From a virus, in IMG/VR virus record IMGVR_UViG_3300027754_000039, positions 117,589-181,588 of that record: 64,000 nt of DNA, one strand, 5' to 3'. The position numbers and the translations under genes were made by a program. This document shows, in pieces, positions 1,312 to 60,398 of the stretch. Position 1 is the stretch's first letter. Each line of letters opens with the position of its first letter. The notes beneath the pieces are model-generated. The model was given only the letters and a program-made list of their open reading frames with translations, was not told the DNA's origin and ran no database searches.

Positions 1312-4300
1312 TTATCCAATCCTGGAGTTTGTAGATCTACCTGATGTTGCTCTGTCTATTGTTGTTAATTGATTATTTGCAAACACTACTTGATTTGGAT
1401 TTACTTGCGTCACTTTAACTACAGGTCCTCCGTCGACAGTTTGTCTTGAATTTGCGTTAACTGCCGATCCTACCAATTTAGAACCGTTTAATCTAGCATT
1501 TGCATATCCAGTTCCTTGAAATTTATTTCCTAAACTAGCAGTTACCGGATATGGAATTAATGAACTACTATATGAAGTTACAGATTCGTATATATAAATG
1601 TCGGCAATTTCTACGTCTTTGATAGAGGTAATTTTATTTTTTAGTGTAAATTTAGGTCCGGTTAATGTAACCGCGTTTGTGGTTTGATATGTTCCCACGC
1701 CATTAATAGGTATATTTGCTACTATTGAAGTAGTAGCAAAATCTATCACATCTATACTTACCGGGTTACCTGCAAATGAAGTTACTTCAAAATAACAATA
1801 CAGTGATCCTGTATACGTGGCTGGCATTGTAAAAGTTACTTTATCTCCTGGCATTAAATAAGCTACCGTAGCATCATACAATCGCTGTACCAAGGCAACG
1901 CTACTGCTAACATTTGTATATGAAGAAGTAAATGAATATTGTCCAAACGGTCTTTGATCGTATATAGTAGTTTGAATAGGCTTATAAGATCCTGATTCTG
2001 TTATTTTATATTTATCTATGTATCTATGCTGAACCCATGAAGTTCCTAGCTTATCAATGTCTGTGGTATTATTTTCAATAAGACCGGCATAAGATTGATA
2101 TTCAGAAGTCATCGCTAACGAGCTACTCATTACTCCTGTTAAATTAGGAAATATACTAGAGTCTGCAACGGTTATTGGTTGAGTAATTAATCCATTTAAG
2201 TTTTGATATACTCCAGAAGCTGATACGTCATTAACTGCATTTAAAGTTACATCGTGCTTTAAATTTTCAATTACAGGGTTGTTAATAAGTTTAACTTTAC
2301 TTCTTTCTAAAACATTTGGCTCTACAACTAATCCTACAATTGCATTTGCTCTTTTAGGAAGTAGCTGCTTAATATACTTAAATAAAGTAAAGTCATAAAT
2401 TTGAAGAGCTCTGAAATACGCTTCAAAGTCATTTCTATTTTCATACTTCTTCCAGTAATTAATTGCAAAGTTATTTAGCTTTGTATAATTGTCATTTAAA
2501 ATATCTCCTGGGTCTCCGATATAATCGTCAATTTCAAAATATCCTAATTGATTGAATATGTCTTCATTGATTGCAGTTTGAGGGGAGAAATAAACTCCTA
2601 CTCTATTAGAGTCTAAAGAGTATCTGTCAAATGATGATTTCTCAATTCTTGTTTTAGTATTTAATCTTTTATTAACATCTAAACTAGCAGATTCAATTCT
2701 TACTTTGTTTGAATATAAACTAGAAGCTCCTAACGAAGGAGATGGTGTGTAATATGTTTCTTCAAATCCTTCAAATACTATTGACCCTGAACTACTTCCA
2801 AATCCATTGAAGAAAAGTGAACCTGTATTAATAGTTTGATTAGGGTGAGTTGACGATTGATAAAATGAACCACTCTTTATTGTTTTATCTGATAAAGTAA
2901 ATCTTTGCAATAAATGATCAAATGGCTTAGCAGCTTCTTCTCCGGTTGTTAATAAAGTTCTATCAACATTATAAGTGTATGTATTTGGGGATGCTGCATG
3001 CTCTTGAATAGTAGCGTTATTTAGCGACCCAGACCATAAACGAATTTCTTGAAAGTGACCATGAAACTTACCTAGAGAAGATATAGTAGTGCTATTAACA
3101 AATACTGGAGTTATTGCTCTAGATCCTGACGCAAATGTTATAGTCGATTGCTTAAATGGATTAGGCGCTCCAATTACACTAGCAGATACATTATATATTG
3201 TATTGCCGTATAAAGATTTTACTACATTCAATGAAGAAGTTAAGTTGTTATTATTAATAACGACGCTAATCCAACTATTGTCAAATATTTCTAAATTAGA
3301 TGCTGTAATAGCTTGACCAGTTATACCATTAAATAATGTAATAGTACCTTGATTATCATCATTGGTTTCTTTGTTAAGAATTAAATTATAAACATCGTCA
3401 ATTGATCCACTTTTAATAGATAAAATGTTATAAGGAGTTCCTACACCATAGATATAGTTATTATCCGTTTTAAACCGGAATTCCAAGGTGTTAGCATAAA
3501 CATAAGTCTTAGCACCATTTATGAATTGGCCGGCTGTTAAACTTAAGCTACCAGTTTGAGAAAGCCATGCATAATGGTATTTGTCATGCACATATTCAGG
3601 ATAATGATTATTATCAGTGAATGTGCTAGGACCGCCATATTCTTTAATCGTTAATACGGTAGAAGGTATTCCATAACAAGCCAATAAAGCTTTTATAGAT
3701 CTAGAAGTACCCTTTGATTTTAATATATAAGGAAGATTGTTTACAATTCTTCTCCAAATTTCTTTAGTATTTTTTTCATCAGTAATCGTAGTAATATTAT
3801 TAACGCCACTTTCCAACGCTACGCCATTTTCATCAACAGCTAAAGCATATTTCCAAAGCTCAGAAGTTGATTTGCCATTTAATAAATCAAATCCTAAAGA
3901 TTTAGCAACATCGTACAGCAAATTATCTGGCATTCCATCTTTTGGATTTTCTTCTCGAGAATGTATTGACGTAAGTGCTTTAATATATGTCCATAATATA
4001 TCAAAATGTTGCCCCATCATATTAATAAAGAGCAAATACTCTTCATTATCTGTAGATTCCTTTATATATAAAGGAACAGTTTCTATTAATTTATGAATAT
4101 TATTATAATCAAAAATTTCAGCAATCTCTAATAAATCATTATAATATATCTGCCCGGTGTTAGAAGTTGAAGAAACTTGAGTTGCAAAATATCCATAAGG
4201 GTCAGGTGCAGCTCCTAGTGTCCATTGAGTAGCTGCCGTACTCCACATCGTAAAAGCTTCGTTCCATTTCAATGCAGTCGGAGTTGTCTTTGGCCATGGA

Positions 4301-5487
4301 TTAACTATTCTAGGAGTATATGACCCCGTAGTTTCATTAACGTGTGTATATAAAGCACTTCCCGTTGATTCGAAAAATAAATATTTTTCAAAATCATCAA
4401 ATCCACTAACTACACGATTTCGTTTAATGTAAATATCAGCTAAATTAATTTGAGTTATATCTCCTCCATTAACTTGAGATATAGTTTGAACTTGAGCTGA
4501 ATAATATTCAATTAATTCTAATTTATACTTGAAGTTTTTAACTCGTTCAACGGCAGAGCCATAATGAATAAAACTATCAAATATTCTATGATTGGTATTT
4601 AATTTTATTCCTGCTAATGAACCGGAAAAGTAATTGTCGATTAATTGCTGCGATGTTTGTACATTTTCAGTAAGTAAATTATTCCAATTTTTAAAGCTAG
4701 TAGCTACCGAACCTCCATCAAATTCTTCTAATTCAAAATTAGGACCAGCTAATGCTGTAACTGGATCTGGAATATGCTGTGGTATAATCGATACCGTATC
4801 TAATACTGATTCAATTATTTCTTCTGAAACCCATAATCTAGATTTCTCTCCATACTTAGCTGGTAATGGGGCATACAATCTAACAATAATTTCAGGCGTT
4901 GGCCCAAAAGTATCAAATCGCATATTAATTATTTGATACGTTTCATTAAAACCAAAGTTTAATAAAAATGAATCAAATACATCGTCATTGGTTAGTAAAT
5001 CATTCCAACGATTACGAAAAGAATTTAATTGATCACGTAAAGTGATGCTTTCATTATCAGATAATTGAATTCTTAATTCTCGTCTAGACGGAGAAATTTC
5101 TTTAATCCAAAGCTTTTGACCTTTATAAGAGCCTAATAAATTATTAAATAAATTGTATACTACTTTATATTGACCTCTATGTATTCCTAAGCCATCTAAT
5201 TCAGTATTAGTATCAACTGATAAATGTTGGTATGTTAATGAACTAGTACCGTTAAAATCAACGCTATAATGAGTATCGTGATTACCTGTTAAATAAACAC
5301 CGTCTGGAGTATATACATGTAATTCTAAATCCGCAGTTGAATTAAGATTGGTCTCACCGGTTGATTTAAACTTAATAGCAAACTTTCTAGTATCTAAAAG
5401 TTCTTTATCAACAGACTCTAATCTAGATACCTTTATAGTATTAGTTGAGTTTAATAAATCTTGCTGATTAGTATATACTGATAACAT
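1312..5487 (-). CDS. Large baseplate wedge protein (gp7/P2 gpI-like region plus a possible LamG-like beta-sandwich)
   Basis: 1391 aa. Motifs LLYDVAKSLGF...RRIVNNLPYILKSKGTSRSIKALLACYG; beta-rich region ending GHFQEIRLWS; next to gp6/gp25-like genes. Confidence 0.55.
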   Translation of the reverse strand: MLSVYTNQQDLLNSTNTIKVSRLESVDKELLDTRKFAIKFKSTGETNLNSTADLELHVYTPDGVYLTGNHDTHYSVDFNGTSSLTYQHLSVDTNTELDGLGIHRGQYKVVYNLFNNLLGSYKGQKLWIKEISPSRRELRIQLSDNESITLRDQLNSFRNRWNDLLTNDDVFDSFLLNFGFNETYQIINMRFDTFGPTPEIIVRLYAPLPAKYGEKSRLWVSEEIIESVLDTVSIIPQHIPDPVTALAGPNFELEEFDGGSVATSFKNWNNLLTENVQTSQQLIDNYFSGSLAGIKLNTNHRIFDSFIHYGSAVERVKNFKYKLELIEYYSAQVQTISQVNGGDITQINLADIYIKRNRVVSGFDDFEKYLFFESTGSALYTHVNETTGSYTPRIVNPWPKTTPTALKWNEAFTMWSTAATQWTLGAAPDPYGYFATQVSSTSNTGQIYYNDLLEIAEIFDYNNIHKLIETVPLYIKESTDNEEYLLFINMMGQHFDILWTYIKALTSIHSREENPKDGMPDNLLYDVAKSLGFDLLNGKSTSELWKYALAVDENGVALESGVNNITTITDEKNTKEIWRRIVNNLPYILKSKGTSRSIKALLACYGIPSTVLTIKEYGGPSTFTDNNHYPEYVHDKYHYAWLSQTGSLSLTAGQFINGAKTYVYANTLEFRFKTDNNYIYGVGTPYNILSIKSGSIDDVYNLILNKETNDDNQGTITLFNGITGQAITASNLEIFDNSWISVVINNNNLTSSLNVVKSLYGNTIYNVSASVIGAPNPFKQSTITFASGSRAITPVFVNSTTISSLGKFHGHFQEIRLWSGSLNNATIQEHAASPNTYTYNVDRTLLTTGEEAAKPFDHLLQRFTLSDKTIKSGSFYQSSTHPNQTINTGSLFFNGFGSSSGSIVFEGFEETYYTPSPSLGASSLYSNKVRIESASLDVNKRLNTKTRIEKSSFDRYSLDSNRVGVYFSPQTAINEDIFNQLGYFEIDDYIGDPGDILNDNYTKLNNFAINYWKKYENRNDFEAYFRALQIYDFTLFKYIKQLLPKRANAIVGLVVEPNVLERSKVKLINNPVIENLKHDVTLNAVNDVSASGVYQNLNGLITQPITVADSSIFPNLTGVMSSSLAMTSEYQSYAGLIENNTTDIDKLGTSWVQHRYIDKYKITESGSYKPIQTTIYDQRPFGQYSFTSSYTNVSSSVALVQRLYDATVAYLMPGDKVTFTMPATYTGSLYCYFEVTSFAGNPVSIDVIDFATTSIVANIPINGVGTYQTTNAVTLTGPKFTLKNKITSIKDVEIADIYIYESVTSYSSSLIPYPVTASLGNKFQGTGYANARLNGSKLVGSAVNANSRQTVDGGPVVKVTQVNPNQVVFANNQLTTIDRATSGRSTNSRIG

Positions 5488-47584: not shown

Positions 47585-48001
47585 TTATTTAACTTTTTGT
47601 ATAGGAGCAATAACCTTATCTAGAAGTTTAGTTAACTCTTGTTCCGATCCATCGGTTAAAGTTGAAGCGCCAACTAAACTTCCTAAAGTTGATCCTTTAG
47701 GGCCGACAATAACATAAAGTTGATCCAGTCTAGGAGCTCCGGGAACTTTTTCATTTCTAACTACAATGCCATATTTATCACCTATATCATAAACGTAATA
47801 AGTATTAGTTTTTGTATGTTTACCTATAGGAGAGTTTTTGTTTGTTTTATGAATTAGCTTTAAATTCAATTGCTTATCCTTTGCATATTTTTCAAGCGAG
47901 GATTGTACAGAAGTAAGTTTCCATTCAGGATTGTAATAAGTTTCCTTAATTACTTTTTGAATTTCTTCCTTAATAATTTTTTGTAGCTCTGATTTTTTCA
48001 T
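47585..48001 (-). CDS. Leader-class protein (MKKSELQKIIKEEIQKVIKE)
   Basis: Shared leader; late-type motif at 48019-26. Confidence 0.7.
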   Translation of the reverse strand: MKKSELQKIIKEEIQKVIKETYYNPEWKLTSVQSSLEKYAKDKQLNLKLIHKTNKNSPIGKHTKTNTYYVYDIGDKYGIVVRNEKVPGAPRLDQLYVIVGPKGSTLGSLVGASTLTDGSEQELTKLLDKVIAPIQKVK

Positions 48002-48032: not shown

Positions 48033-48524
48033 TTAAATCTTTACTATTACCGATCCATAGCTGTCTTCAAACTTCGCAGTTGGTATTTGCTTTTTGATAA
48101 ATGCCATGTATAAGTCATTTCTCTTAAAGCCTTTCTCGCCTTCCTTTTTTAAAGGCTCATACATAATGACTTTTATCATTTTGTTACGATTTAAATAATC
48201 TTTTATGATATCGACTATGGTAGACATAACTCGATACATTTCTCCTTTATTGGATACCGTAAACACATCGCCAGTATAATCGCCGGCCATGTTTGGCTCT
48301 GCACCGGGTATGATACCAAAGGACACGTCAATAGCTGCTAGTTCTTTATTATCATCATGAAAGTCTTCATATACATAATTCTCCAAAGCGACTTTATATG
48401 AAGTGTCTTGATCTGTTTTAAATGCAAAAAATACAGTATCTTCTTTAGTGAAAACTTTTTTCCATTTGTATGGAGTGGTTGTTGCTTCACCTACTTCTTT
48501 TAATATGTCTTTGAGTTTGATCAT
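48033..48524 (-). CDS. MIKLKDIL-leader protein, paralog family X
   Basis: NKGEMYRVMSTIVDIIK...RNDLY..FIKKQIP; similar to 48524-48997. Confidence 0.75.
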   Translation of the reverse strand: MIKLKDILKEVGEATTTPYKWKKVFTKEDTVFFAFKTDQDTSYKVALENYVYEDFHDDNKELAAIDVSFGIIPGAEPNMAGDYTGDVFTVSNKGEMYRVMSTIVDIIKDYLNRNKMIKVIMYEPLKKEGEKGFKRNDLYMAFIKKQIPTAKFEDSYGSVIVKI

Positions 48525-48997
48525 TATGATAGTGTTACACGATACTCCCCATGTCTGTAATCAACTTGAGCGTTAGGTAATTGCTTTTGTATATATGCTT
48601 TGTAAAGGTTGGCTCGACGAGTGTCATCTTCATAATTTTTATCAGGAACAAACTCAATTATCTTAACCGGCGGTTTACCTTCTTCAGCTATTTTAGCAAT
48701 ACAGTCCTTGATAATAGCAATTACAGTAGCCATTATTTTAAATTGCTCTCCTTTATTTGTTACGTCATGAAAGTCGCCTTCATCAGTTTTAAACATTACT
48801 GATACAATATTGTATCTGTCCTCGCTGGCTGTATTTACTGCCAATATAACTATGTATTTTAAATTGGACTCTGTCGTAAAATTGTAAGTGCGAATGTGTT
48901 TTCTTTCGTCTTGAAATAAACGTGGAGTGTATTTAAACTTGTATGGAGTGGCAGTGCCTTCACCTACTTCAGTTAATATGTCTTTGAGTTTGATCAT
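48524..48997 (-). CDS. MIKLKDIL-leader protein, paralog family X
   Basis: VTNKGEQFKIMATVIAIIK...RANLYKAYIQKQLP. Confidence 0.75.
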   Translation of the reverse strand: MIKLKDILTEVGEGTATPYKFKYTPRLFQDERKHIRTYNFTTESNLKYIVILAVNTASEDRYNIVSVMFKTDEGDFHDVTNKGEQFKIMATVIAIIKDCIAKIAEEGKPPVKIIEFVPDKNYEDDTRRANLYKAYIQKQLPNAQVDYRHGEYRVTLS

Positions 48998-49003
48998 TAT
49001 GAT

Positions 49004-49486
49004 TTACTTATTAGGCACAATATCTTTTACTTTATCAACAGCTATAATGTATTGTTTTATATTGTCAACTTTCTCATTAGGACCTTTAAAGGATATACGT
49101 TCTTCCTGCTCATCATATTGGCTAGTAGCATCAAAAAAGTTTCTTCTATCAGATTCTGATTCATCTTCTAACCAATCGTATTCCCAATTATCCGTATAGT
49201 CCCAGCCTGGTACGTATGCAAAAGGTTGTATTTTGTATTTGTTAGAAAGTTTATCGCCGTCAATCGTTATTCTATAATCTGTTTTTACATTCCAATTATT
49301 ACCTTTTCTATGAAAGTTTTTATTTCGAGTAAATGATATAAAATATAAAGTATGATCTCTATAGCTTTCAGTCGTTATGTTAAGTTCGTTAGAATCTAAA
49401 ATACTCTTTAATCCAGCTTTTGATGTATAATGATACAAAATGCCAACTTGTTTTGCCTCGTTTAGTATGTCGCGTAGTTTTATCAT
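49004..49486 (-). CDS. MIKLRDIL-leader protein, ADP-ribosyltransferase-like fold
   Basis: LYHYT...ILDSNEL...ISFTR...DEQEERI. Confidence 0.55.
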   Translation of the reverse strand: MIKLRDILNEAKQVGILYHYTSKAGLKSILDSNELNITTESYRDHTLYFISFTRNKNFHRKGNNWNVKTDYRITIDGDKLSNKYKIQPFAYVPGWDYTDNWEYDWLEDESESDRRNFFDATSQYDEQEERISFKGPNEKVDNIKQYIIAVDKVKDIVPNK

Positions 49487-50301
49487 ACCGTATGTATTTT
49501 TGTAATTAAAGAAGCTGGTAATCTGCCTTTGACTGCAAATTGTGAGGTCATTCTCATTGATTGTATTGCTGATGTAGTATCTACTTTTCCATGTTGCATT
49601 ACAGCTAACATTTGAATCATACTCATATTAGATTGAAAGTCATCATCTGCTGTAATCATTGACATTGGTATATTATCTACTTCAATAACAATAGGTTTTG
49701 TCTTAATACCCATTTTCTTATACGATTCAACTGCGTGATCTGCATAGTATGCTGCTCTCTGATAATCAATTGACCAATATGTTTTATCTTGAGAATCAGG
49801 ACCATAAAATTTATCCCATTTAAGAATTTCTTGATCTGTTTTAGATGGCGGAGTAATTCCTATTTTTTGAATAGATTCTAAATCTTTTGTTGTAGTACCA
49901 TGAAATGCTTTAGGAACTACATTGGAAAATGTAGCATCATATTGAATGAAGTCGGCAATTTTCAACGAGCCAATATTCTTTTTAACATTGGACATTGGAA
50001 TGTCAATTTTCCAAGTCATATCAACTAATTTAGCTTTAAGCATATCTTTAACTGCTTGTTGCATTTTTAAGATATCTTTGAAACTAGACCAATCATCATA
50101 ATCTTGCAGCTCAACTATTTTCTTTACAGGCTCAACACTCATAGGAAATATTTTATTCAAAACCATAGGTGGTGTCGCACCTGGTGACATAGCAACTAAA
50201 TCTCCATTGTTCCAAATTATGATATATGGTTTAGTTGTGTCAATTTTATCTATGTTTTGTATAGACTTTAATTCAAATAGTATGTCTTTGAGTTTGATCA
50301 T
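49483..50301 (-). CDS. MIKLKDIL-leader protein, H-type ADP-ribosyltransferase-like domain
   Basis: AFHGTT..DLESIQKIGI.P...TYWSIDYQRAAYYA...PIVIEV. Confidence 0.65.
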   Translation of the reverse strand: MIKLKDILFELKSIQNIDKIDTTKPYIIIWNNGDLVAMSPGATPPMVLNKIFPMSVEPVKKIVELQDYDDWSSFKDILKMQQAVKDMLKAKLVDMTWKIDIPMSNVKKNIGSLKIADFIQYDATFSNVVPKAFHGTTTKDLESIQKIGITPPSKTDQEILKWDKFYGPDSQDKTYWSIDYQRAAYYADHAVESYKKMGIKTKPIVIEVDNIPMSMITADDDFQSNMSMIQMLAVMQHGKVDTTSAIQSMRMTSQFAVKGRLPASLITKIHTV

Positions 50302-50307
50302 TTTAAT

Positions 50308-50631
50308 TTATTTCTTAACAAAAAAGTAGTGAGTATCATCATTTATAAAAATAAAATACACATCACTTTCTTCAGAGTATCTATATTCTGGTGTATATTT
50401 AGGATCAAGATCTGCTTTTTTTACCAATTTGTAATTGTCACTTGAAGGATCAATATGTAACCAAAACTCATCTTTAGATATTTTTTTAGCAGTATCCCAA
50501 GAATTGAAAAAATCTTCTTCATTGTCAAAAGCATTATTTATACATTCTCCATACTCATCAAAAGAGTTAGTACACGTACCTATGTAAATATAATCTTTGT
50601 TTTCCTTTAATATGTCTTTGAGCTTGATCAT
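50308..50631 (-). CDS. MIKLKDIL-leader protein, unknown domain
   Basis: Leader then YIGTC..SFDEYGEC. Confidence 0.7.
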   Translation of the reverse strand: MIKLKDILKENKDYIYIGTCTNSFDEYGECINNAFDNEEDFFNSWDTAKKISKDEFWLHIDPSSDNYKLVKKADLDPKYTPEYRYSEESDVYFIFINDDTHYFFVKK

Positions 50632-51113
50632 TTATATAAAAAATAATACGTGCCGTTATTAACTTGCTTCATTTCCAACTTAGTTGCTATAAGCGGAGCC
50701 ATCTTTTTATACAAATCTTTTCTAGAAGCTTCTTTAGCTGAAAAGAATATAAGATTGGATTTTTCTCGTTTGATTTTATCAACTACTGCATTGATAACAA
50801 TACCGAAGATCTTCGCTGCATCAGAACCTCCTAATCCAGTAATACCTTTACCCTTTTTAACATCTCTAAATTCAACATGATATCCTTCGCCATCATTAAA
50901 CATATCAAGTACTTCTTCAGGTAATAGTTTGCCCGCGGCGATAATAGCATTATCTGGCAAATTTAGGTATTCTAAAGAAGTAATGTCTATTGCATATTTT
51001 TGATTGTTAGGGCCAGTAAAGGTAGCAGTGAAATCTGTTTCTTCACCCTCACGCCATCTTATTTTTTCTTTGGTATCAAATAGCTCTTTTAAAAGTAATT
51101 CTAGTTTTATCAT
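50628..51113 (-). CDS. MIKLELLLKE-leader protein, distant family X paralog
   Basis: GLGGSDAAKIFGIVINAV...IFFSAKEASRKDLYKKM. Confidence 0.65.
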   Translation of the reverse strand: MIKLELLLKELFDTKEKIRWREGEETDFTATFTGPNNQKYAIDITSLEYLNLPDNAIIAAGKLLPEEVLDMFNDGEGYHVEFRDVKKGKGITGLGGSDAAKIFGIVINAVVDKIKREKSNLIFFSAKEASRKDLYKKMAPLIATKLEMKQVNNGTYYFLYK

Positions 51114-51114
51114 T

Positions 51115-51474
51115 TTATTTATTTTTAATTAACAACTCTCCTAACACTTCAATTCTACCAACTAACTCTTGAAAAGCTATTTGTTCAATAGACATTGTTT
51201 TGTTAGTAGCTTCGTATAATTGATTTAACAACTCTACATATTCTTCACGAGCCTTAGTTAAATCCAATTCTCCTTCAGCGGCTTTTTCATAGTAAGGTAG
51301 TTTTACCTTGTAATGATGCCAAGTTAGCAAAGCTAATCCACCTTTTTCTTTAGTAGTGTCTGTAATTGATTCAGCTCCGCTTAATCGAGTATCTGCAAAT
51401 TCTTCAAACGCTTTTTCTGATGTAGTTTCCTTTTCTTTAGGAGCCTCGGATAGTATGTTTTTGAGTTTGATCAT
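51115..51474 (-). CDS. MIKLKNIL-leader helical protein
   Basis: Leader; late-type motif at 51481-88. Confidence 0.7.
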   Translation of the reverse strand: MIKLKNILSEAPKEKETTSEKAFEEFADTRLSGAESITDTTKEKGGLALLTWHHYKVKLPYYEKAAEGELDLTKAREEYVELLNQLYEATNKTMSIEQIAFQELVGRIEVLGELLIKNK

Positions 51475-51496
51475 TTTAATATAAATATGTAAAAGA

Positions 51497-51796
51497 CTAT
51501 TTAATTTCTACATTTAAACCTTGACGCAATAAAGCATTGCATATAGGAGTTAGCTTTTCTACCGTGCCTGAATACACTACACACTTACCATTAAGATGTA
51601 CTGTTAAAGCCATTTGTTCTGCCTCGATAAGTTTTTTATTGCAATACTTTATTAAACATGAAATTACATGATCAAAGCTGTTCACGTCGTCGTTGTAAAG
51701 TATTAACGAGCTTGCAGGTGGCTCCATTGCATTGCTTATAAGAGTATCCATAATAGTATCTATGTCTTCCTCTATTTCTATTTCTGTTGAGTTCAT
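51497..51796 (-). CDS. clpS: ClpS N-degron adaptor
   Basis: LILYNDDVNSFDHVISCL...AEQMALTVHLNGKCVV. Confidence 0.88.
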   Translation of the reverse strand: MNSTEIEIEEDIDTIMDTLISNAMEPPASSLILYNDDVNSFDHVISCLIKYCNKKLIEAEQMALTVHLNGKCVVYSGTVEKLTPICNALLRQGLNVEIK

Positions 51797-51807
51797 ATTA
51801 GTCTTGT

Positions 51808-52092
51808 TTATCGACCTTCATATTGCCATAGCACAGCATTACAATATGCATGCACAGCACCTTCAGTCATATTTGTATAATGATCATGTTGTAAGTGAAT
51901 TGGATACGTTAAAAATCCAGGAGGGAATAGTTTCCAATCAATATCTTTACTTGTAATTTGTTCAGGAGGATTTGAATCCAACGTCTCTTTACAATACATA
52001 CAACAATTGTTTTGCTCTTTAATGTATTGCATTCTAACTTCTCTTCTTTGTTGTTGTGTTAGCTTTGTGTAATCAACTGGTAAATTATACAT
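51808..52092 (-). CDS. Endonuclease VII-like (His-Me finger) protein
   Basis: CMYC...HLQHDHYTNMTEGAVHAYCN. Confidence 0.7.
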   Translation of the reverse strand: MYNLPVDYTKLTQQQRREVRMQYIKEQNNCCMYCKETLDSNPPEQITSKDIDWKLFPPGFLTYPIHLQHDHYTNMTEGAVHAYCNAVLWQYEGR

Positions 52093-52165
52093 ATATCATT
52101 ATTTACATAAATATAATTTATTACTTTCAAAGTGCCAAATATCCTTTTGATAAATTCAAAAGAAA

Positions 52166-52195
52166 TCAGTAGAAAAAGCATAATTATGCTCTTTT
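52166..52195 (-). terminator. Terminator with TTTTCTACTGA tail
   Basis: AGCATA-AT-TATGCT followed by TTTTTCTACTGA. Confidence 0.55.
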
Positions 52196-52204
52196 AATAT
52201 TAGT

Positions 52205-52402
52205 TTAAATTAAATCTTTTAGCTTGATAATATCTTCTGATTTAGGTTCCATTAACTTTTCTATTCGCATAGTAAGTAAAGGTCTTCCATTTATAATTGG
52301 AAGTCCATATTCATCATACTCAATAGATTTAACTTTAACTCGCTTGTTTTTAAATCTACCTACTCGTACGATATCTCCTATTTCAATTGGGATCTTTATC
52401 AT
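52205..52402 (-). CDS. Small KOW/SH3-like protein ending in IKLKDLI
   Basis: IEIGDIVRVGRFKNKRVKV; leader-like motif at the C-terminus. Confidence 0.65.
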   Translation of the reverse strand: MIKIPIEIGDIVRVGRFKNKRVKVKSIEYDEYGLPIINGRPLLTMRIEKLMEPKSEDIIKLKDLI

Positions 52403-53316
52403 TTATTTTTAACTGACTTAATAAATTGTTGGAGAGCTTTTGCATATTCTCTATTAAGACTAAAGCCCATAGGAGTATCTGTTAAGCTATCAGAGTTATC
52501 GTATACTTCAATTATATCTTCAACACTATATACTGGTGAGAACTTTTCCTTAGCTGCTAATTTATTATATTTATCAACCATTGGTTTAAAGAATGGCGCA
52601 GCTTTAGTTAGCTTATGAACAAAATTGTCTTTAGGTTCAAATTTCCATGTATTTAAAAAAACTTGGGAATCAACATATGCTTCAAAAGTACCTTCACCTC
52701 CTATCCTTATAGTTTCTTCTTCACTTGGTGGGCCATCAAATATAATCTTAAGTAACTCAGGGGTAAAAATAAAATCATTATTTATTTTAGTAGCATATAC
52801 TACACGAACGCTATTCTCATTATTAGCAGTACCTTCAAACTTAAATGCAACTTTTGGATCTATAGTCCAAGATTGTGAGTTTCTTATTGGACTATACTTT
52901 AAATTTTTAAAACGAAATACCTCTCTACCACCTACTTTAACAATTGTATATTGTTTTTTCATAAATGCAAATCTGAGAGAATCTGTTTTTATAGATGTAC
53001 CTCGATATGCCATTTTACCAATAGGAGGTTGTAACACTTTAGGAAACTCTTTAGCTAAAGTTTGTAATAACTCTTTATTCTTTGCAAAGTATTTTGCAGT
53101 ACTAGAATCAGAGCTACTTAGCCAATCACTAATGACTACATACATCTTACCTTCCCATGGAGTATCAGGTTCTACTGGCTCTTCAGGTGCTTTTTGCAGC
53201 TTAGTTAAGTCAGGATCCTCTCCAAACAAAACATTACCAACTTTTTTTTGTATAGCTGGAGGAAGAGCTTCATATAAAGCCTTTACTTCCTTAAGAATTT
53301 GTTTATTACTCTTCAT
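52399..53316 (-). CDS. Leader-class protein with R-S-E type ADP-ribosyltransferase-like domain
   Basis: MKSNKQILKE; AYRG...SQSWTIDPKVAFKF...SEEETI. Confidence 0.65.
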   Translation of the reverse strand: MKSNKQILKEVKALYEALPPAIQKKVGNVLFGEDPDLTKLQKAPEEPVEPDTPWEGKMYVVISDWLSSSDSSTAKYFAKNKELLQTLAKEFPKVLQPPIGKMAYRGTSIKTDSLRFAFMKKQYTIVKVGGREVFRFKNLKYSPIRNSQSWTIDPKVAFKFEGTANNENSVRVVYATKINNDFIFTPELLKIIFDGPPSEEETIRIGGEGTFEAYVDSQVFLNTWKFEPKDNFVHKLTKAAPFFKPMVDKYNKLAAKEKFSPVYSVEDIIEVYDNSDSLTDTPMGFSLNREYAKALQQFIKSVKNK

Positions 53317-53333
53317 ATTAATAAATATCTAAA

Positions 53334-54008
53334 TTATTTCTTCTTCGGAAGGTTATTTAATCTCTCCTGGTAATAAGGACCTGTCTTTATCTTTTGATCT
53401 TTCAAAGACTTTTTATCATTATGCACAGGAACAGGTTCTCCAGTAACTTCATCTATGTAATACTTTTTATTGGCACCCCATGGAGACCCTACATAAATAA
53501 AATAACAATTGAAACAAAGAAATTGAACATTCTCCAAAGCATAGTTTTGTTTATTACCATCTATCCAATGCATCTTAAGTGGCATATCATAATCATATTG
53601 CCTACGCTCTTGAAACCCACAACAGTCACATCTCTCTTGCTTCCACCCTTCATTTATCAAACGCTTTTTAAAAGAATGCAAATTGAATTTAGGATGTTTA
53701 TTAGCAAATATCTCATCGATAGGTGTTGGCTGAAATGCCCAAGGTGCTGAAGCTTTTCTTCTATATCGAGTTTGAGGAAGTACTAATCGTTTAGCAAATC
53801 CATTCTCTTTGTGTAATTGATATAGTGTCTTACCTGTTGGCTCGTCAATATACATCTTAGCATATTTCTTCCAGGTAGCAAATGATACATGTAACCAAAC
53901 TGCCGCTTCTGAATTAGAAGTTGTATTGGCCATTGCATAGCGCAGCTGCGATTCCTTTAATTCATATCCCTTGTATTGTCCAAATGTACCTTTTCCATTT
54001 ATTCCCAT
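53334..54008 (-). CDS. HNH endonuclease-like protein
   Basis: RCDCCG...LKMHWIDGNKQNYALENVQFLCFNC. Confidence 0.75.
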   Translation of the reverse strand: MGINGKGTFGQYKGYELKESQLRYAMANTTSNSEAAVWLHVSFATWKKYAKMYIDEPTGKTLYQLHKENGFAKRLVLPQTRYRRKASAPWAFQPTPIDEIFANKHPKFNLHSFKKRLINEGWKQERCDCCGFQERRQYDYDMPLKMHWIDGNKQNYALENVQFLCFNCYFIYVGSPWGANKKYYIDEVTGEPVPVHNDKKSLKDQKIKTGPYYQERLNNLPKKK

Positions 54009-54096: not shown

Positions 54097-55008
54097 TTAG
54101 TTAATTTCTTTAACCATAGTTTTTAAATCTTCTTCTGATAAAGCTACAAATACATAAACACCTGGAGCGTCTGTTGCATAAAACATATAATCGCCTGGAT
54201 TAACTCCTGTCGATCCTTGACCAATCTCTCCTAAATACTTATATTCATTATATTCATCAGTTCCAGCATCTAATACTTTATATGTTTTATTAACCCATAA
54301 AGCTGTCATTCTACCTGGTCCTGTAGGGATAGCAGCAATTTCAGATACTGACTGTTTAGCTTGATGTGCTGCTTGAACACTTGCTAATGTAGGTAAAGGC
54401 TCTCCAAATTTTCTTTCGCCACGCTCCCAAGCATATCCTTCTTTCAAAGTCTTTTTAGATTTGCTAGGCTTTTTAGATTCCATAAATTGGTCATCACCCA
54501 TCTCTTCCATTTCTTCAAAATACTCTTCAATGCTTTTATAATTTCTTGACACTGCTTTCCATTCGTCATTCATTTCTTTAACAGCAGTCTTTATTTGTGA
54601 AGGACTAGCATATTCAAAAGTTGGAGAAGACATTATGAAGTCTCCGATTTTATCTAAATCATCTTTTGTAGCTACTATTTCACGCATACCTGCCATACCA
54701 CCTGACATTCCTCTTATTCTTCCTAATCCATCATCTAGAGCCATTTCAATAGCATCATCTAGATACTCATCTAACTCAGGAACTTTATTCACTAATTTTA
54801 AATTGGCTTTTGGATCGGTAGTGCTCATTATAATACTTAACTCATCCTTAATGTCTTTGACAATCTCTTTTGCACGTTTTGCATCTTTACCACCCTTTTT
54901 CATCATAGCATGTAAAATAGCTACGTTTTCTTTTGGATTACGATAAGTTTCAGTTAAAGCTTTTTTAACTTCTTCTCTAATTACTTTTTGTAAGTCTAGT
55001 TTGTTCAT
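54097..55008 (-). CDS. Leader-class multidomain protein (MNKLDLQKVIREEVKKALTE)
   Basis: Leader plus internal xxE junction-like motifs (FME, TLKE, SVSE). Confidence 0.7.
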   Translation of the reverse strand: MNKLDLQKVIREEVKKALTETYRNPKENVAILHAMMKKGGKDAKRAKEIVKDIKDELSIIMSTTDPKANLKLVNKVPELDEYLDDAIEMALDDGLGRIRGMSGGMAGMREIVATKDDLDKIGDFIMSSPTFEYASPSQIKTAVKEMNDEWKAVSRNYKSIEEYFEEMEEMGDDQFMESKKPSKSKKTLKEGYAWERGERKFGEPLPTLASVQAAHQAKQSVSEIAAIPTGPGRMTALWVNKTYKVLDAGTDEYNEYKYLGEIGQGSTGVNPGDYMFYATDAPGVYVFVALSEEDLKTMVKEIN

Positions 55009-55014
55009 TTTAGT

Positions 55015-55344
55015 TTATTTTACTGGTACTCGTTTAATCTCTGTCTTCGTACGCACAATAGCTGTCTTATCTAATTTCTTAGCAACGTCACTTAATTTAG
55101 TACCCATTACCGTAGCACCTGGACCTGCAATATCAACTACTACAGTGTCAGGTTTAACGCCTGGCTTAATAGTTAATTTAACAGGATAGTCTCTTTTCAT
55201 TTCAGGTCGCTTAGTAAAAAGTTCTAATTCCTTAGTAATCTCTTTAGCTTTTTGAGATGTAATTACTATTCTACGAAACGCATCTTCAGTTAATACATTT
55301 TGAATTTCTTCTTTTATTATTGCTCTTAACTCTGATGCTTTCAT
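55015..55344 (-). CDS. Leader-class protein (MKASELRAIIKEEIQNVLTE)
   Basis: Leader; late-type motif at 55388-95. Confidence 0.7.
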   Translation of the reverse strand: MKASELRAIIKEEIQNVLTEDAFRRIVITSQKAKEITKELELFTKRPEMKRDYPVKLTIKPGVKPDTVVVDIAGPGATVMGTKLSDVAKKLDKTAIVRTKTEIKRVPVK

Positions 55345-55407: not shown

Positions 55408-56691
55408 TTATTGTATAACTTTTACAATCTTTCCATTTGAGTAGTGATGTAAAACTAATCCTTGATAATCAGAAGTTACTGGTCGTCCCAGTAAATCTGT
55501 TATTTTAATAAGATCAGCAAGTTGCTCAGAGATTTTATTATCAATGTAAATTATATTTGAGTAGGTAAATGTTTGATTAAAATCAACTTGTTTTAATCTG
55601 TAATAATTAATTACATTTTTTATAAATGTATAGTCTTCAAATAAATAAAAACTTGGGGTACTAATTGTGCCTGCTCCTTTTATATTAGCAATGTCATTCC
55701 AATTTATACCGTCAGTACTTCTTTCTAATTCATAAAAATCATTTTTAGTTTCTGTAGCTGTAATCCAAGTTAAGTTATTATATTTGTCTTTGTTTTTTCC
55801 TTCAAAATTAACTAATTCAATTGGTAAATTACTACACATAGCTCCGGAAGTAGCACTTAAAACATAATTACCATAAACTGATGTTGATGAATAATATCCT
55901 ACACTTATAAAATAAATTATACCCATTCCTGAACACCAAGTTACTGTTGAATAAAGACTACTTAAAGCACAAACACCATCATCATCATTACAAGTAACTT
56001 CAATCATGCTATTTAATACACTACAAGACCCAGTATATACTCTTATTTCAGTATCAAAATTTGTAGATGCGTTACAAGTTGATGCTGATAATTGAGTATT
56101 GTTTCCTACTACTTTATACCAAACATTTGAACCAAAAGTACCACAATTTGATATAGATGTAGGTACATCACTTATTGCTCCATTAGTTGATAAAACTCCA
56201 CTATTGTAAGGTAAACTAGTAATATTCGTAGCATTAATACAATTATCATTTGCTATAATAGAAACAACACAAGTTTCTCTATAAGTAAAAATAGTGCTTG
56301 AAGATAAATTTGCGCAAGAGTAGTTTGTTAATAATATTGAGTATGCTCCTGAGGTTGCGCAAGCCCAAACAATAGATGCTTTGGTGCCACTACAAATAGG
56401 ACCATTATCGTCATTTGAAGTTACTAAAATTGCGGTTACGGGGTTAGTACCAGAATATAGTCTTAAATAAGTATCATTTGCATTAATACTAGTGCAACTA
56501 CTTAATGTGTAAGTACAGCCGGCAGTTGCATTAAATGTCCAATATCTTTTAGCATTAGCACTAACGGTAGTACTTTGCATTATTGCATTAGGAGTAATAA
56601 CTCCCATATTTGTTAAAGAAACTGTGCTACAAAATTGGGCTTTAGTAATTAAAAAACTTAAAGTAAATATTATTGTTAATAGTTGTTTCAT
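55408..56691 (-). CDS. Secreted Cys-rich protein with LPIEL Ig-like domain and type A-like T9SS CTD
   Basis: Signal peptide A^Q; LPIELVNFEG...W.TATE..ND...ERS.DG...YYRLKQVDF; KITDLLGR...GKIVKV tail. Confidence 0.8.
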   Translation of the reverse strand: MKQLLTIIFTLSFLITKAQFCSTVSLTNMGVITPNAIMQSTTVSANAKRYWTFNATAGCTYTLSSCTSINANDTYLRLYSGTNPVTAILVTSNDDNGPICSGTKASIVWACATSGAYSILLTNYSCANLSSSTIFTYRETCVVSIIANDNCINATNITSLPYNSGVLSTNGAISDVPTSISNCGTFGSNVWYKVVGNNTQLSASTCNASTNFDTEIRVYTGSCSVLNSMIEVTCNDDDGVCALSSLYSTVTWCSGMGIIYFISVGYYSSTSVYGNYVLSATSGAMCSNLPIELVNFEGKNKDKYNNLTWITATETKNDFYELERSTDGINWNDIANIKGAGTISTPSFYLFEDYTFIKNVINYYRLKQVDFNQTFTYSNIIYIDNKISEQLADLIKITDLLGRPVTSDYQGLVLHHYSNGKIVKVIQ

Positions 56692-56727
56692 TTTAGTAAA
56701 TATTATTGTTAATAGTTGTTTTATTTT
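56662..56727. repeat. 33-bp tandem duplication at the gene junction
   Basis: agtaaatattattgttaatagttgttt(c/t)atttt twice, one mismatch. Confidence 0.9.
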
Positions 56728-59700
56728 AATAAAGTAACGTGTCCTATTTTTTCTATTTTTACATTAGCATTGTTTATTGCTATTATTACATATACATACA
56801 CTCCATTTTGACAATATATACCTTTAAATGTTCCATCCCATCCCTTAGTAATATCAGTACTTACAAATATTTGCTCACCCCATCTATCATATATCCACAT
56901 TTTGTATGTTTTAATACCAGATCCTTTTGGTTTAAATACATCATTTTCACTATCACCATTAGGAGTAAAGGCATTTGGGATATATAATAAAAATTCTTCT
57001 TTAATTTCAAGTATTTTAGTTATTGTGTCTTTACATCCAAACTCTGTAGTTACAACCATAGTAATTGGGAATTTATCTTGCACATCATAAATTCTTGTTG
57101 GAGTGAATTCGGTTGGAGTGTCTATATTACTAAATTCCCAATTGTAAGTATAATTTTTATTTAATGGTGAAGGATAAAACGTTACTTTATTTTTAGAAAC
57201 AGTGGTTGGATCTTGCGGATCCCATATAAAATTAGCAATTGGAGTTGGATAAACATTTATAACGTTTGGATATTTGAATATTTCACGGCAGCCATTAGTA
57301 CCAGTTGACACTGTTTCTAAAGTGTAACTTCCTGCAGGTAAACAAATAATAATACTATCACCATAATACACTTTATCCTTATTAAATACGTAATTTACAA
57401 ACCCAGCATCTTTTATTTTTGAATTATATAATGCACAAAATGGTTCACATTTATTAGCATTTACTTGAAAGTTAGGAATAGGAGCACTATTTACATTTAA
57501 TGTAAAGGTATGGTTTAGAGTATATTGAGGGCAAGAAACATCAAACACAGATATATTGTAAATCATTGTTCCAATACTTGTACCAATTTGTATACTTCCG
57601 TTTGCGCTAGATAGTCCTACTTCTGGTATCCAATTGTAAGCATAATTTCCACTTCCATTTCCTGCTTGTGCGGTTATAGTAAAGCTATCTCCTTTACAAA
57701 TTGTTTTATTTGAAGGAGTATTTTGCCAAACAATAGGATTTAATACTTGTAAGTTAGTACTTCCATAAGTTTTACATCCGTTTAAATCAACAGTTAAGTT
57801 ATAAGTTCCTGTGTTTAATAAATTAACATTAGGTATAAATAAATTTTGTGTAATTGAATTATATCCAGGACCTGTCCAAGTATATGAAGAAGCTCCTAAT
57901 GGACCAGTAACATTATAATTACTATTGTAACATAACTGAATGTATGGAGTTAATGTAAAATTAATTTTAGGATTAACTAATAATGTAGTTGTATTTGTGT
58001 TATAACAAGTTATATTTCCATTTGTAAATGCAGCTGTAACTGTATAATTTCCATTCCAACTTGAATTTAGATTTTGGAAATATGTTATTGGTTGGGGTAC
58101 ATTAAAATTATTAGGGCCGGACCAAGTGTATGAAATAGCTCCTTGAGCTGTTGCTGTTAAAGCAGCATTGTTGTTTTCACAAGCAATTATTTGTGGTATA
58201 ACAGTTATTGAGTTAACTAGTACTATAGAAAGATTTGTTGTGTTATAAGTTGTACAAGAAACTGAACCAATACTAAATACTGCTGCTATGCTATAAGTTC
58301 CATTTAAGTTTGGTTGAGCATTAAATGTATATGAAGGTAATGTTCCCGTAAATCCATTTGTGGAAGTCCAAATATAATTAGGATTTCCTGCTGCTGTAGC
58401 TGTTATTGATATGTTTGTGTTTGGGCAAGCATTTTGAAATGGTATAACAGAAATCTGATTCATTGGAACAACAGATACATTTGATACTGCCGTTGAAGAA
58501 CAAACTAAGGTAGTGCTAGGACTTGTAAACGTAGCTGTAACAGAATAGTTGCCTGAGTTAGCAGGTGTTACTGATATTAGGATAGGATTTTGTTGAGTAT
58601 TATTATAATTAGGTCCTGTCCAACTAAATGAATTTGCTCCTAATACACTTGCATTTAAGTTTACATTTGTGCCTTGACATTGAGTGTAGGTAGAAATTAC
58701 AGATACTTGTGCTATAGGTACTATTACTAAATTACTATTTGAAGTTGAACTACAAACACCACCATTTGTAAATGTATTTACTACCGTAACAGAGTATGTT
58801 CCAGTATTATTTGGAATTGAACTTGCAATTAATGGATTTGCAAGATTAGAATTAAATCCATTTGGTCCAAACCAATTGTAACTAGTTGTACCGGCAGCAC
58901 TTGTTGTAACAGATAGTGAAACAGGCGAGCCTTGGCAGACCGGTCCGGTATTTGAAACAGAAGTTATTGTTGGTGTAGGGTTAACAGTTACTAAAGTTGT
59001 TTGAGTTCCAACACAACCAGCTGTATTTGTAAATGAAACTGAATAAATAGTTGATGCAATTGGATTCGCAATAACGTTAGGTCCGCTAATAGTATTTAAG
59101 GTTGCCGGCGGAGCCCAAGTATATGTTGGAGCACCGTTTGCAGTTAAGGCAGATGTATTTCCCGAACAAATTGTACCGCTGGTAATTGTAATAGGATTTA
59201 ATGGAGTTGTAGTAACTGAAACAACAGCTGTTCCTGTTTTACAACCAAGGTTATCAGCAACGTTAACAGTATATGTACCAGATGTTAATCCGGTTGCAAC
59301 TTGCGTATTTTGATTCGTAGGAGTCCAAGTATAAGTATATGCTGGATTACCTCCTAAAACAGTAACAGTAGCATTTGATGTAGGACAAGATGGTGTACTT
59401 AAAGCAGTAACAGTTAAACAAGGACCAGTTTGCCAAAACATACCCGCCATATTTAATGAATAACAGTCGCCGGTACTTGTAATACCATAGTTTGCGGTTG
59501 TTTGTCCGTTTACTGCTGGAGCACCAGGTGCAGGAATGTAATCCCATATTTGCTGGCTTGCAATAGGAAACCCTGCATTATTTACAAGGCTATTCATACG
59601 TAAGTTAGGAGAAGAAATCCTTTGTAAATCTCCTACCAACATAAAATTTTGAGTTGTTGTAGGATTACCACAAACATTAAAACCAGTAATTAAACTGTTA

Positions 59701-60398
59701 ACTGAACCTCCAACACCTACCTGACAGCCATCGGCAATAACAATACTACCAGTAATGTTTAAAGCAGGGTCAACATATACTATAAATAAAGTCGCACCAT
59801 CAGTATCCTTTGAAGGAGCTTGAGGCATAACCGGACAACCAGAAAGTGTATAAGTACCATTACCAGTAATAACTGCAGTTACATTAGCACGAGAAGTCCA
59901 AGAGCCATTATAACCCCAGCATTTATCAGTATGAAAACCAATTTGTGTCATTGCAAAAACCTGATTAACAGCAGAAGGATTTACTAAAGTAGCATTAAAA
60001 TTACCTGAACCTGTTGGGCCAGAACCACCGGCATACAAAAAAGCTGCTTGAATAATAGCTCCTACAGGTATTCCGGAAACAATAATAGGACAAGGTTGAG
60101 TTGTACCGGTTCCTGGAGGAACTCCGCTAAAAACTCTTTTATGTAAACGGGCCGAAACCTGTGTATAACCCAATCCACAAGCTGTTTGAGTATAGCTGGT
60201 TGCGATAACACCATTACCATTCATTACATTATTTGTTGAGTTCCCTATCGGTCTCAAATTTGAAATAGATGTAGTGTCTGCCCTAGGACAGTTATGACAA
60301 GGGGTACCAGGTAAATGAGCTGGATTTGTTTGAGCTGAGGCTGTAAGGCTTATTATAGCCATACTTGTAATAATAAGCCATTTTAATTTTGTTTTCAT
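56721..60398 (-). CDS. Large adhesin-like protein with Ig/SprB/PKD repeats and type B T9SS (gliding motility-associated) CTD
   Basis: Signal peptide A^Q; repeated YSWTGP...YTVTA units; GGNPAYTYTW; PIANFIW; YIPNAFTPNGD..NDVF...IYDRWGE...WDGTF..GVYVY. Confidence 0.9.
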   Translation of the reverse strand: MKTKLKWLIITSMAIISLTASAQTNPAHLPGTPCHNCPRADTTSISNLRPIGNSTNNVMNGNGVIATSYTQTACGLGYTQVSARLHKRVFSGVPPGTGTTQPCPIIVSGIPVGAIIQAAFLYAGGSGPTGSGNFNATLVNPSAVNQVFAMTQIGFHTDKCWGYNGSWTSRANVTAVITGNGTYTLSGCPVMPQAPSKDTDGATLFIVYVDPALNITGSIVIADGCQVGVGGSVNSLITGFNVCGNPTTTQNFMLVGDLQRISSPNLRMNSLVNNAGFPIASQQIWDYIPAPGAPAVNGQTTANYGITSTGDCYSLNMAGMFWQTGPCLTVTALSTPSCPTSNATVTVLGGNPAYTYTWTPTNQNTQVATGLTSGTYTVNVADNLGCKTGTAVVSVTTTPLNPITITSGTICSGNTSALTANGAPTYTWAPPATLNTISGPNVIANPIASTIYSVSFTNTAGCVGTQTTLVTVNPTPTITSVSNTGPVCQGSPVSLSVTTSAAGTTSYNWFGPNGFNSNLANPLIASSIPNNTGTYSVTVVNTFTNGGVCSSTSNSNLVIVPIAQVSVISTYTQCQGTNVNLNASVLGANSFSWTGPNYNNTQQNPILISVTPANSGNYSVTATFTSPSTTLVCSSTAVSNVSVVPMNQISVIPFQNACPNTNISITATAAGNPNYIWTSTNGFTGTLPSYTFNAQPNLNGTYSIAAVFSIGSVSCTTYNTTNLSIVLVNSITVIPQIIACENNNAALTATAQGAISYTWSGPNNFNVPQPITYFQNLNSSWNGNYTVTAAFTNGNITCYNTNTTTLLVNPKINFTLTPYIQLCYNSNYNVTGPLGASSYTWTGPGYNSITQNLFIPNVNLLNTGTYNLTVDLNGCKTYGSTNLQVLNPIVWQNTPSNKTICKGDSFTITAQAGNGSGNYAYNWIPEVGLSSANGSIQIGTSIGTMIYNISVFDVSCPQYTLNHTFTLNVNSAPIPNFQVNANKCEPFCALYNSKIKDAGFVNYVFNKDKVYYGDSIIICLPAGSYTLETVSTGTNGCREIFKYPNVINVYPTPIANFIWDPQDPTTVSKNKVTFYPSPLNKNYTYNWEFSNIDTPTEFTPTRIYDVQDKFPITMVVTTEFGCKDTITKILEIKEEFLLYIPNAFTPNGDSENDVFKPKGSGIKTYKMWIYDRWGEQIFVSTDITKGWDGTFKGIYCQNGVYVYVIIAINNANVKIEKIGHVTLLK

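Follow-up and report, generated by a model that had tools for sequence, protein, structure and literature searches.

Three leader-tagged ADP-ribosyltransferase-type proteins encoded by a putative uncultured T4-like phage

To our knowledge, the single worked example of an injected phage ADP-ribosyltransferase (ART) was long Alt of bacteriophage T4, an arginine mono-ART of about 70-76 kDa that is processed by the protease gp21. Alt is cleaved and packaged in the head, with 40 copies in each, and passes into the host on ejection (PMC9026906, PMC3012670). The T4 protease gp21 cleaves after L/I-X-E (PMC9026906), and the first 10 residues of the internal protein IPIII form a capsid targeting sequence, the internal proteins being otherwise unrelated to one another (PMC9026906, PMC3012670). 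Head packaging, which comparative genomics predicts to be frequent among phage ARTs, is also predicted for MuF-fused ARTs and for those of polyvalent proteins (Iyer, Burroughs, Anantharaman, Aravind 2022, PMC9503650), and packaging-type contexts hold ~44% of phage ARTs (PMC9503650); with these and Alt, head-packaged phage ARTs are already an established concept. Tox-ART-HYD1 (PF15633) is an ART toxin domain of bacterial polymorphic toxins (Zhang et al. 2012, PMC3482391). Here we describe a locus in the IMG/VR virus record IMGVR_UViG_3300027754_000039 that encodes three proteins with ART-type domains, designated P1, P2 and P3, each behind a short N-terminal leader. The stretch of 64,000 nucleotides that was analyzed (the window) comprises bases 117589-181588 of the 181,588-bp record, which CheckV rates as complete; coordinates of P1, P2 and P3 are given in window numbering.

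Relative to these systems, the new elements are the proposed delivery by a short cleavable tag or by beads delimited by [ILV]-x-E, the apparent co-occurrence of three different ART clades on one tag in one phage, and two ART families, those of P1 and P2, that go undetected by Pfam or by PDB sequence profiles.

ART-type domains of the three proteins

The initial annotation of the window had reported three different ART-like domains among leader-tagged proteins. The motifs that it quoted are present where it had placed them in three minus-strand open reading frames (ORFs), and they are the best-conserved positions of the respective families: Y104-R105-G106, S147-Q-S149-W-T151 and E199-E-E201 in P1 (52399-53316); F133-H134-G-T, Y175-W-S-I-D and A183..Y186-A187 in P2 (49483-50301); and Y18-H19-Y-T21, S51-F-T-R54 and E126-Q-E-E129 in P3 (49004-49486). 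The ART-like reading holds with unequal strength, being backed by a strong fold match for P2, by a moderate fold match together with R-S-ExE conservation for P1, and by a Pfam match at the cut-off for P3. Structure prediction with Foldseek comparison to ART folds, proposed with that annotation as a check, thus came out strongly for P2 and moderately for P1. Sequence profiles run against the PDB gave no ART match for the P1, P2 or P3 families or for an 80-member P1 alignment; the only PDB profile matches (WD40, Fab and Rtp) were judged spurious. In PHROGs, P2 and P3 fall into families of unknown function only and P1 has no match. A blastn search with the region returned short unrelated patches only. 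Of 50,697 GenBank phage records searched by tblastn, none matched P1 or P2, and P3 had a single weak match, to an uncultured phage of 636 kb.

That the three domains are different is borne out by family-versus-family profile comparison, in which the leader alone is common to P1, P2 and P3; they are therefore not paralogues, and the phage encodes three unrelated ART-type proteins that presumably use nicotinamide adenine dinucleotide (NAD).

The features of P2, all on the minus strand, are:

49483..50301, minus strand: P2, 272 residues, an N-terminal domain and a C-terminal ART domain (from the ORF and the AlphaFold model)
50272..50301, minus strand: P2 leader MIKLKDILFE (homologue alignment)
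49486..49938, minus strand: P2 ART-fold domain, residues 122-272 (predicted fold)
49900..49902, minus strand: P2 His134 of F-H-G-T-T on the first strand; invariant, in strand 128-137
49744..49779, minus strand: P2 Tyr175 to Tyr186 (Y-W-S-x-D ... Y-Y-A); both invariant, 11 residues apart

The AlphaFold (AF2) model of P2 has a predicted local distance difference test score (pLDDT) of 81 and a predicted template-modelling score (pTM) of 0.80. Foldseek against the PDB returned 21 matches at E <= 1e-3, all of them ARTs, among them pertussis toxin S1, Tpt1/KptA, DarT1 and cholera toxin. A search independent of Foldseek, over 48,161 representative chains, placed KptA and DarT1 at the top, and 47 of the top 50 rows belonged to the ART superfamily, all aligned over model residues 103-272. 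Judged from the model, the C-terminal domain has an ART fold beyond reasonable doubt.

Across 24 P2 homologues H134, Y175, Y186, A218-D-D-D-F222 and Q254 are invariant. In the model the first strand of the domain carries H134 and the following one Y175, so that P2 combines an ART fold, H-G-[ST] on the first strand and two tyrosines ~11 residues apart, as in the H-Y-[EDQ] clade. We take this spacing to be the same as that between Y54 and Y65 in diphtheria toxin and between Y896 and Y907 in PARP1. Near strands 254-258 and 266-271 none of the invariant residues is a Glu; the invariant residue there is Q254, and E207 is either E or Q. By these features P2 is an ART domain of the H-Y type in which no catalytic Glu is obvious.

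P2 was also considered as a Tpt1/KptA protein. It aligns with the C-lobe of Tpt1 only (chain residues 85-180), it lacks the N-terminal RNA lobe of Tpt1 and with it the Arg-His-Arg part of the catalytic tetrad, its own N-terminal domain best matching another fold, and PF01885 has no match in the 24 members or in the genome; because only the C-lobe aligns and PF01885 finds nothing, this assignment was ruled out. P2 differs further from Tpt1/KptA and DarT in that Tyr takes the place of the second His, that an ADDDF loop is invariant and that the N-terminal domain is another one. The 24-sequence alignment matched no meaningful Pfam family. Because the fold is Tpt1/DarT-like, P2 possibly modifies nucleic acid.

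The features of P1 are:

52399..53316, minus strand: P1, a 305-residue R-S-ExE-type ART-like protein (ORF)
53287..53316, minus strand: P1 leader MKSNKQILKE, 10 residues, ending I-L-K-E (homologue alignment)
52642..53037, minus strand: P1 ART core, residues 94-225 (span of the ART fold matches)
53002..53004, minus strand: P1 Arg105 of Y-R-G on the first strand; sole invariant residue in 80 diverse members
52870..52872, minus strand: P1 Ser149 of Q-S-W-T, the equivalent of the S-T-S motif; at least 90% conserved
52714..52722, minus strand: P1 Glu199-x-Glu201 (ExE) at the start of strand 201-205; invariant in 26 members, at least 90% conserved in 80

The 26 close homologues (46-83% identity) all share R105, Q148, W150, T151, E199 and E201, and conservation of S149 among them is at least 90%. 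Searching 1.84 billion representatives by profile yielded 392 clusters (50% identity) at E <= 1e-3; in the 80-member alignment, which reaches down to ~22% identity with a mean column identity of 14%, R105 alone is invariant, and Y104, G106, S149, W150, E199 and E201 are at least 90% conserved. The alignment-based AF2 model (pLDDT 71.8) has strands at 102-110, 147-151, 201-205 and 209-216, with R105 on the first of these, S149 on the second, and E199-x-E201 at the start of the third, which hairpins into the fourth. In the model this layout of strands and motifs is the R-S-E arrangement.

The P1 model matches the Vibrio splendidus ART Vis (E 2.7e-4, probability 1.0). Its matches in BFVD include head-morphogenesis-domain proteins and Alt-type RNA polymerase ARTs, the likeness to the latter being weak (E 1e-2 to 7e-2). 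An independent ESM Atlas model of the core leads to arginine-ART (PF01129/PF03496) and DRAT clusters, with template-modelling (TM) scores of 0.51-0.54. P1 thus has the aromatic-R-G on the first strand, Ser-x-Ser/Thr, [EQ]-x-E and the ART core that characterize the R-S-E clade. Sequence families gave nothing comparable: the 26 close members matched no Pfam ART family at E <= 1, the 80 diverse members gave nothing above noise at E <= 0.1 (the only ART-related row was DRAT, E 0.069), PF03496 had no match anywhere in the genome, and P1 is not matched by the curated ART hidden Markov models (HMMs; PF03496, PF01129, PF07357). Since fold and motifs match and no curated HMM does, placement of P1 in the R-S-E ART clade, outside any described family, is supported by the model. 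Its target would most likely be protein arginines.

The features of P3 are:

49004..49486, minus strand: P3, a 160-residue Tox-ART-HYD1-like protein whose start overlaps the P2 stop codon (ATGA) (PF15633)
49457..49486, minus strand: P3 leader MIKLRDILNE, with conserved AKQVG directly after it (alignment)
49430..49432, minus strand: P3 His19 of Y-H-Y-T; invariant in 31 relatives
49325..49336, minus strand: P3 S51-F-T-R54; T53 and R54 invariant, S51 and F52 at least 90% conserved
49100..49111, minus strand: P3 E126-Q-E128-E129, a candidate catalytic acidic motif; E126, E128 and E129 invariant

P3 matches PF15633 with 25.6 bits (cut-off 25; E 2e-5), its residues 17-65 aligning to profile positions 1-49 of 97, and a six-frame search gave 25.9 bits against the same cut-off of 25; 22 of 31 relatives match at E <= 0.1, the best at E 7e-6. 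In these relatives (n=31, down to 38% identity) H19, T53, R54, G77, E126, E128 and E129 are invariant. The published Tox-ART-HYD1 signature is H, [RK], [FY] and [DE] (PMC3482391), for which conserved H19, R54, F52, and D76 or E128 are candidates by residue type; E126-Q-E128-E129 may play the catalytic role. The nearest named Atlas clusters by features, DarT/PARP (0.91) and Arr (0.89), are leads only.

P3 resembles Tox-ART-HYD1 in scoring above the curated HMM cut-off and, by residue type, in its conserved His, aromatic, basic and acidic positions. It differs in that its alignment covers just half of the model, from profile position 1 to 50 of 97, in the invariant E-x-E-E of its family and a 37-residue acidic/aromatic insert in the P3 of this phage, and in being phage cargo, either leader-tagged or a polyprotein bead, rather than an RHS, type VI secretion system (T6SS) or type VII secretion system (T7SS) toxin with Imm-My6CBD immunity. 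The profile match, seen across the family, supports a Tox-ART-HYD1-type protein.

Leader peptides, polyprotein junctions and a promoter-like box

As the initial annotation had indicated, P1, P2 and P3 are all leader-tagged: each begins with 10 residues that end in I-L-x-E (MKSNKQILKE, MIKLKDILFE and MIKLRDILNE, respectively). Nine ORFs of the genome start with MIKL(K/R)D(I/L)LxE, of which seven, P2 and P3 among them, are contiguous at window 48033-51474, and two are in the head module. Between leader genes the codon differences are synonymous, the x position is free, and similarity stops directly after Glu10; selection therefore acts on the peptide. The leader is widespread in the three families, with [ILVM]xE in the first 16 residues of 79 of 82 close P1 homologues, and the strict form (MIKLxDILxE) at the start of 43 of 148 distant P1-family representatives, 38 of 46 P2 homologues and 74 of 120 P3 homologues.

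Several links tie the leader to head genes. The genome, in which the minus strand carries nearly all genes, codes for a T4 gp21-type prohead protease (genome 93363-93812; PF03420, E 2e-31), a major head protein (phrog_138, E 6e-74), a portal (phrog_213, E 1e-71) and a head-tail adaptor. Leader-like starts are found on the major head protein (MSLHSILNES) and the putative scaffold (MKDLLKEA). Leader-tagged genes lie in head modules both here and in related contigs, and in one related contig a P2 homologue is 2.3 kb from the major head gene.

The P3-type module also occurs inside 18 long ORFs (468-1287 residues) of other viral contigs, always directly after [ILV]-x-E; examples of the junction, marked by a slash, are KITE/AKQVG, ALNE/GKQVG and GLEE/GKQVG.

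IMG/VR contigs L013-L027, L037, L058, L060, L071, L075, L081: multi-module ORFs with a HYD1-type ART module

From their sequences these ORFs appear to be 'beads on a string' polyproteins, predicted substrates of the prohead protease. With [ILV]-x-E inside polyproteins, a role in translation start is excluded there, and a protease site fits.

In related IMG/VR phages, arrays of 6-8 MIKL-leader genes stand beside 3-7 genes that have a second leader (MKKSELRxLIRE...). Most of the cargo differs from that of the present phage; P2 is kept, and P1 and P3 are not in the flanks.

The second leader, M(K/N)K.E(L/F).K(I/L)I(K/R)EE(I/V).K.(L/I).E, is longer and amphipathic and starts ~7 ORFs of the genome; in related phages L004 and L005 it heads the 3-7 genes beside the MIKL arrays.

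Window 47585-48001, 54097-55008 and 55015-55344, minus strand: second-leader ORFs
Genome 5022, 5573, 51068 and 51518: second-leader ORFs

The leader-tagged array includes a homologue of the ClpS adaptor (window 51497-51796, minus strand; PF02617, E 6e-17). Were leaders cut after Glu10, Leu would come first in some mature cargo (LKSIQ in P2; LFDTK in 50628-51113), which is a ClpS N-degron, and it is conceivable that the phage ClpS is linked to cargo stability after injection. A 65-residue ORF (52205-52402, minus strand) with a weak KOW-like match overlaps the P1 stop codon; its C-terminus, ...EDIIKLKDLI, resembles the MIKLKDIL leader and may have been left behind when cassettes recombined at leader DNA.

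A promoter-like box precedes both P1 and the MIKL array:

53321..53328, minus strand: ATATTTAT box, 4 nt upstream of the P1 start codon (box search)
51481..51488, minus strand: ATATTTAT box, 6 nt upstream of the first gene of the tight MIKL array (51474 to 48033)

The full form, (G/T/C)ATATTTAT(T/A)(T/A)AA, has 49 sense versus 17 antisense copies genome-wide, and 34 of the 49 sense copies have a start codon at most 40 nt downstream. Besides P1 and the first gene of the array, the portal and head-tail adaptor genes have the box in front of them, and it is also found upstream of 47585-48001, 53334-54008 and 1312-5487 (all minus strand). By its distribution it is a candidate late promoter, and its presence before P1 and the MIKL array as well as before head genes suggests co-expression with the latter. 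The T4 late promoter TATAAATA was rejected as an alternative, as it is not enriched in the genome (13 found versus 18.8 expected).

A proposed head-loading route and its alternatives

The explanation that we favor, as probable though some way from secure, is that three leader-tagged ARTs are packaged in the head, injected, and modify host targets. P1 would be an enzyme of the R-S-ExE (arginine-ART/Alt-like) clade and P2 one of the H-Y-Y type, its closest solved folds being Tpt1/KptA and DarT, ARTs that act on nucleic acids; P3 would be a small Tox-ART-HYD1-type enzyme. Each would be synthesized, probably late, with its 10-residue N-terminal peptide ending I-L-x-E, which by analogy with the capsid targeting sequences of T4 internal proteins would dock the protein into the prohead core; the gp21-type prohead protease would then remove it after Glu10. 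The mature enzymes would be retained with the DNA in the head and ejected into the next host cell, there using NAD to ADP-ribosylate host targets. Because ART-type proteins here carry what looks like a head-loading tag of the T4 kind, the phage probably injects several host-modifying enzymes. This is what the initial annotation had suggested, with protein, RNA or DNA as possible targets in host takeover or counter-defense: the ART-like part of that suggestion is supported, and packaging and injection gain indirect support from the gp21-type protease, the leader rule, the polyprotein junctions and the shared promoter-like motif.

The parallel with Alt lies in a T4-type phage with a gp21-family protease, an R-S-E-type protein (P1) and a short propeptide ending in Glu after L/I-x. 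P1 is, however, without detectable sequence homology to the Alt family or PF03496 and is much smaller at 305 residues, and three ART clades share one tag here, whereas T4 packages Alt only. IPI, IPII and IPIII of T4 likewise have a 10-residue leader ending L/I-x-E with unrelated mature parts behind a constant leader, and T-even internal-protein loci resemble the present one in that cargo differs between related phages carrying the same leader. Unlike those of T4, the leader here is MIKLKDILxE, the cargo includes ART-superfamily enzymes, and the arrays are larger (nine genes with the MIKL leader and ~7 with the second). The MuF-fused and polyvalent-protein ARTs embody the same concept, phage ARTs, especially of myoviruses, that are predicted to be packaged and injected; head-morphogenesis-domain proteins are among the BFVD matches of P1, and P3-type modules occur in multi-module proteins. 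The difference is that delivery is proposed here to depend on a short cleavable leader or [ILV]-x-E beads, not on MuF or portal fusion.

Two alternatives were weighed against this packaging and injection explanation. The proteins could be real ARTs that act in the producing cell, like T4 ModA and ModB, and are not packaged, with the leader serving as a translation-start context, a recombination handle for cassettes or a ClpS-linked stability signal. The ClpS gene (51497-51796) stands within the array, the 65-residue ORF ending ...IIKLKDLI has the look of a leader remnant and hints at recombination, and array content varies among related phages. We think this unlikely, however, given that codon changes in the leader are synonymous and preserve the peptide, that the leader obeys the L/I-x-E rule and the genome has a gp21-type protease, that inside polyproteins the P3 module follows the same junction, which cannot serve translation start there, and that head modules contain leader-tagged genes. 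Alternatively, at least one of the three may have an ART fold and not be a transferase: P2 could be a KptA/Tpt1-like RNA-end repair enzyme or a binder of NAD or ADP-ribose, and P1 or P3 could be NADases or inert head filler. The best P2 matches are the NAD lobes of Tpt1/KptA, phages are known to have KptA homologues that serve RNA repair (PMC9503650), and in P2 no catalytic Glu is invariant, so that it may not be a classical transferase. Even so, we regard an exception of this kind as decidedly unlikely.

It is very improbable that P1 is no ART at all, its R...S...ExE pattern and weak fold matches being coincidental. For residues 94-225, two independent models (AF2 with alignment, and Atlas) lead to R-S-E-clade ARTs; no column of the 80-member alignment, in which mean column identity is 14%, is better conserved than the three motif positions; and ExE at a strand start followed by a hairpin strand is as in R-S-E ARTs.

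A broader version of the packaging and injection explanation, which we put forward tentatively and as doubtful in its full extent, is that in a large clade of uncultured T4-like phages a portable 10-residue tag (MIKLKDILxE) or [ILV]-x-E beads in polyproteins load interchangeable head effectors, that at least three ART clades are recurrent cargo, and that P2, as a Tpt1/DarT-like enzyme without the Glu, ADP-ribosylates nucleic acid of the host, not protein, at injection. If this is true, the interchangeable head-loaded arsenal would be a phage counterpart of bacterial polymorphic toxin systems. The locus offers a compact and testable case, with three ART clades behind one putative cleavable tag in one phage. 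If it is confirmed, the leader would give a simple sequence criterion by which to find injected effectors in metagenomic phage genomes and could serve for loading foreign proteins into phage heads other than those of E. coli phages, and the targets of P1, P2 and P3 could reveal new take-over or counter-defense chemistry in Bacteroidota.

Host and neighboring genes

The genome was also searched for genes of macrodomains, ADP-ribosylhydrolases, ADPrib_exo_Tox, NAPRTase/NadV (NAD salvage) and Tpt1, and none was found. Two large secreted-looking proteins with signal-like N-terminal peptides are encoded at window 55408-56691 and 56721-60398 (minus strand). The latter, of 1225 residues, has Ig-like repeats and a C-terminal CHU_C type IX secretion domain (E 8.5e-14), and is by its sequence a predicted phage-encoded substrate of the type IX secretion system. 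This domain points to a Bacteroidota host, and we read the record as an uncultured T4-like phage of that phylum.

The leader-tagged proteins at 48033-48524, 48524-48997 and 50628-51113 (minus strand) have weak DUF6934 matches (E 0.003-0.007, below the cut-off) and resemble paralogues. At window 53334-54008 (minus strand) lies the gene of a 224-residue Cys-rich protein without a Pfam match, which is kept directly upstream of leader arrays, with 74% identity in phages L004 and L005 and 42% in L008.

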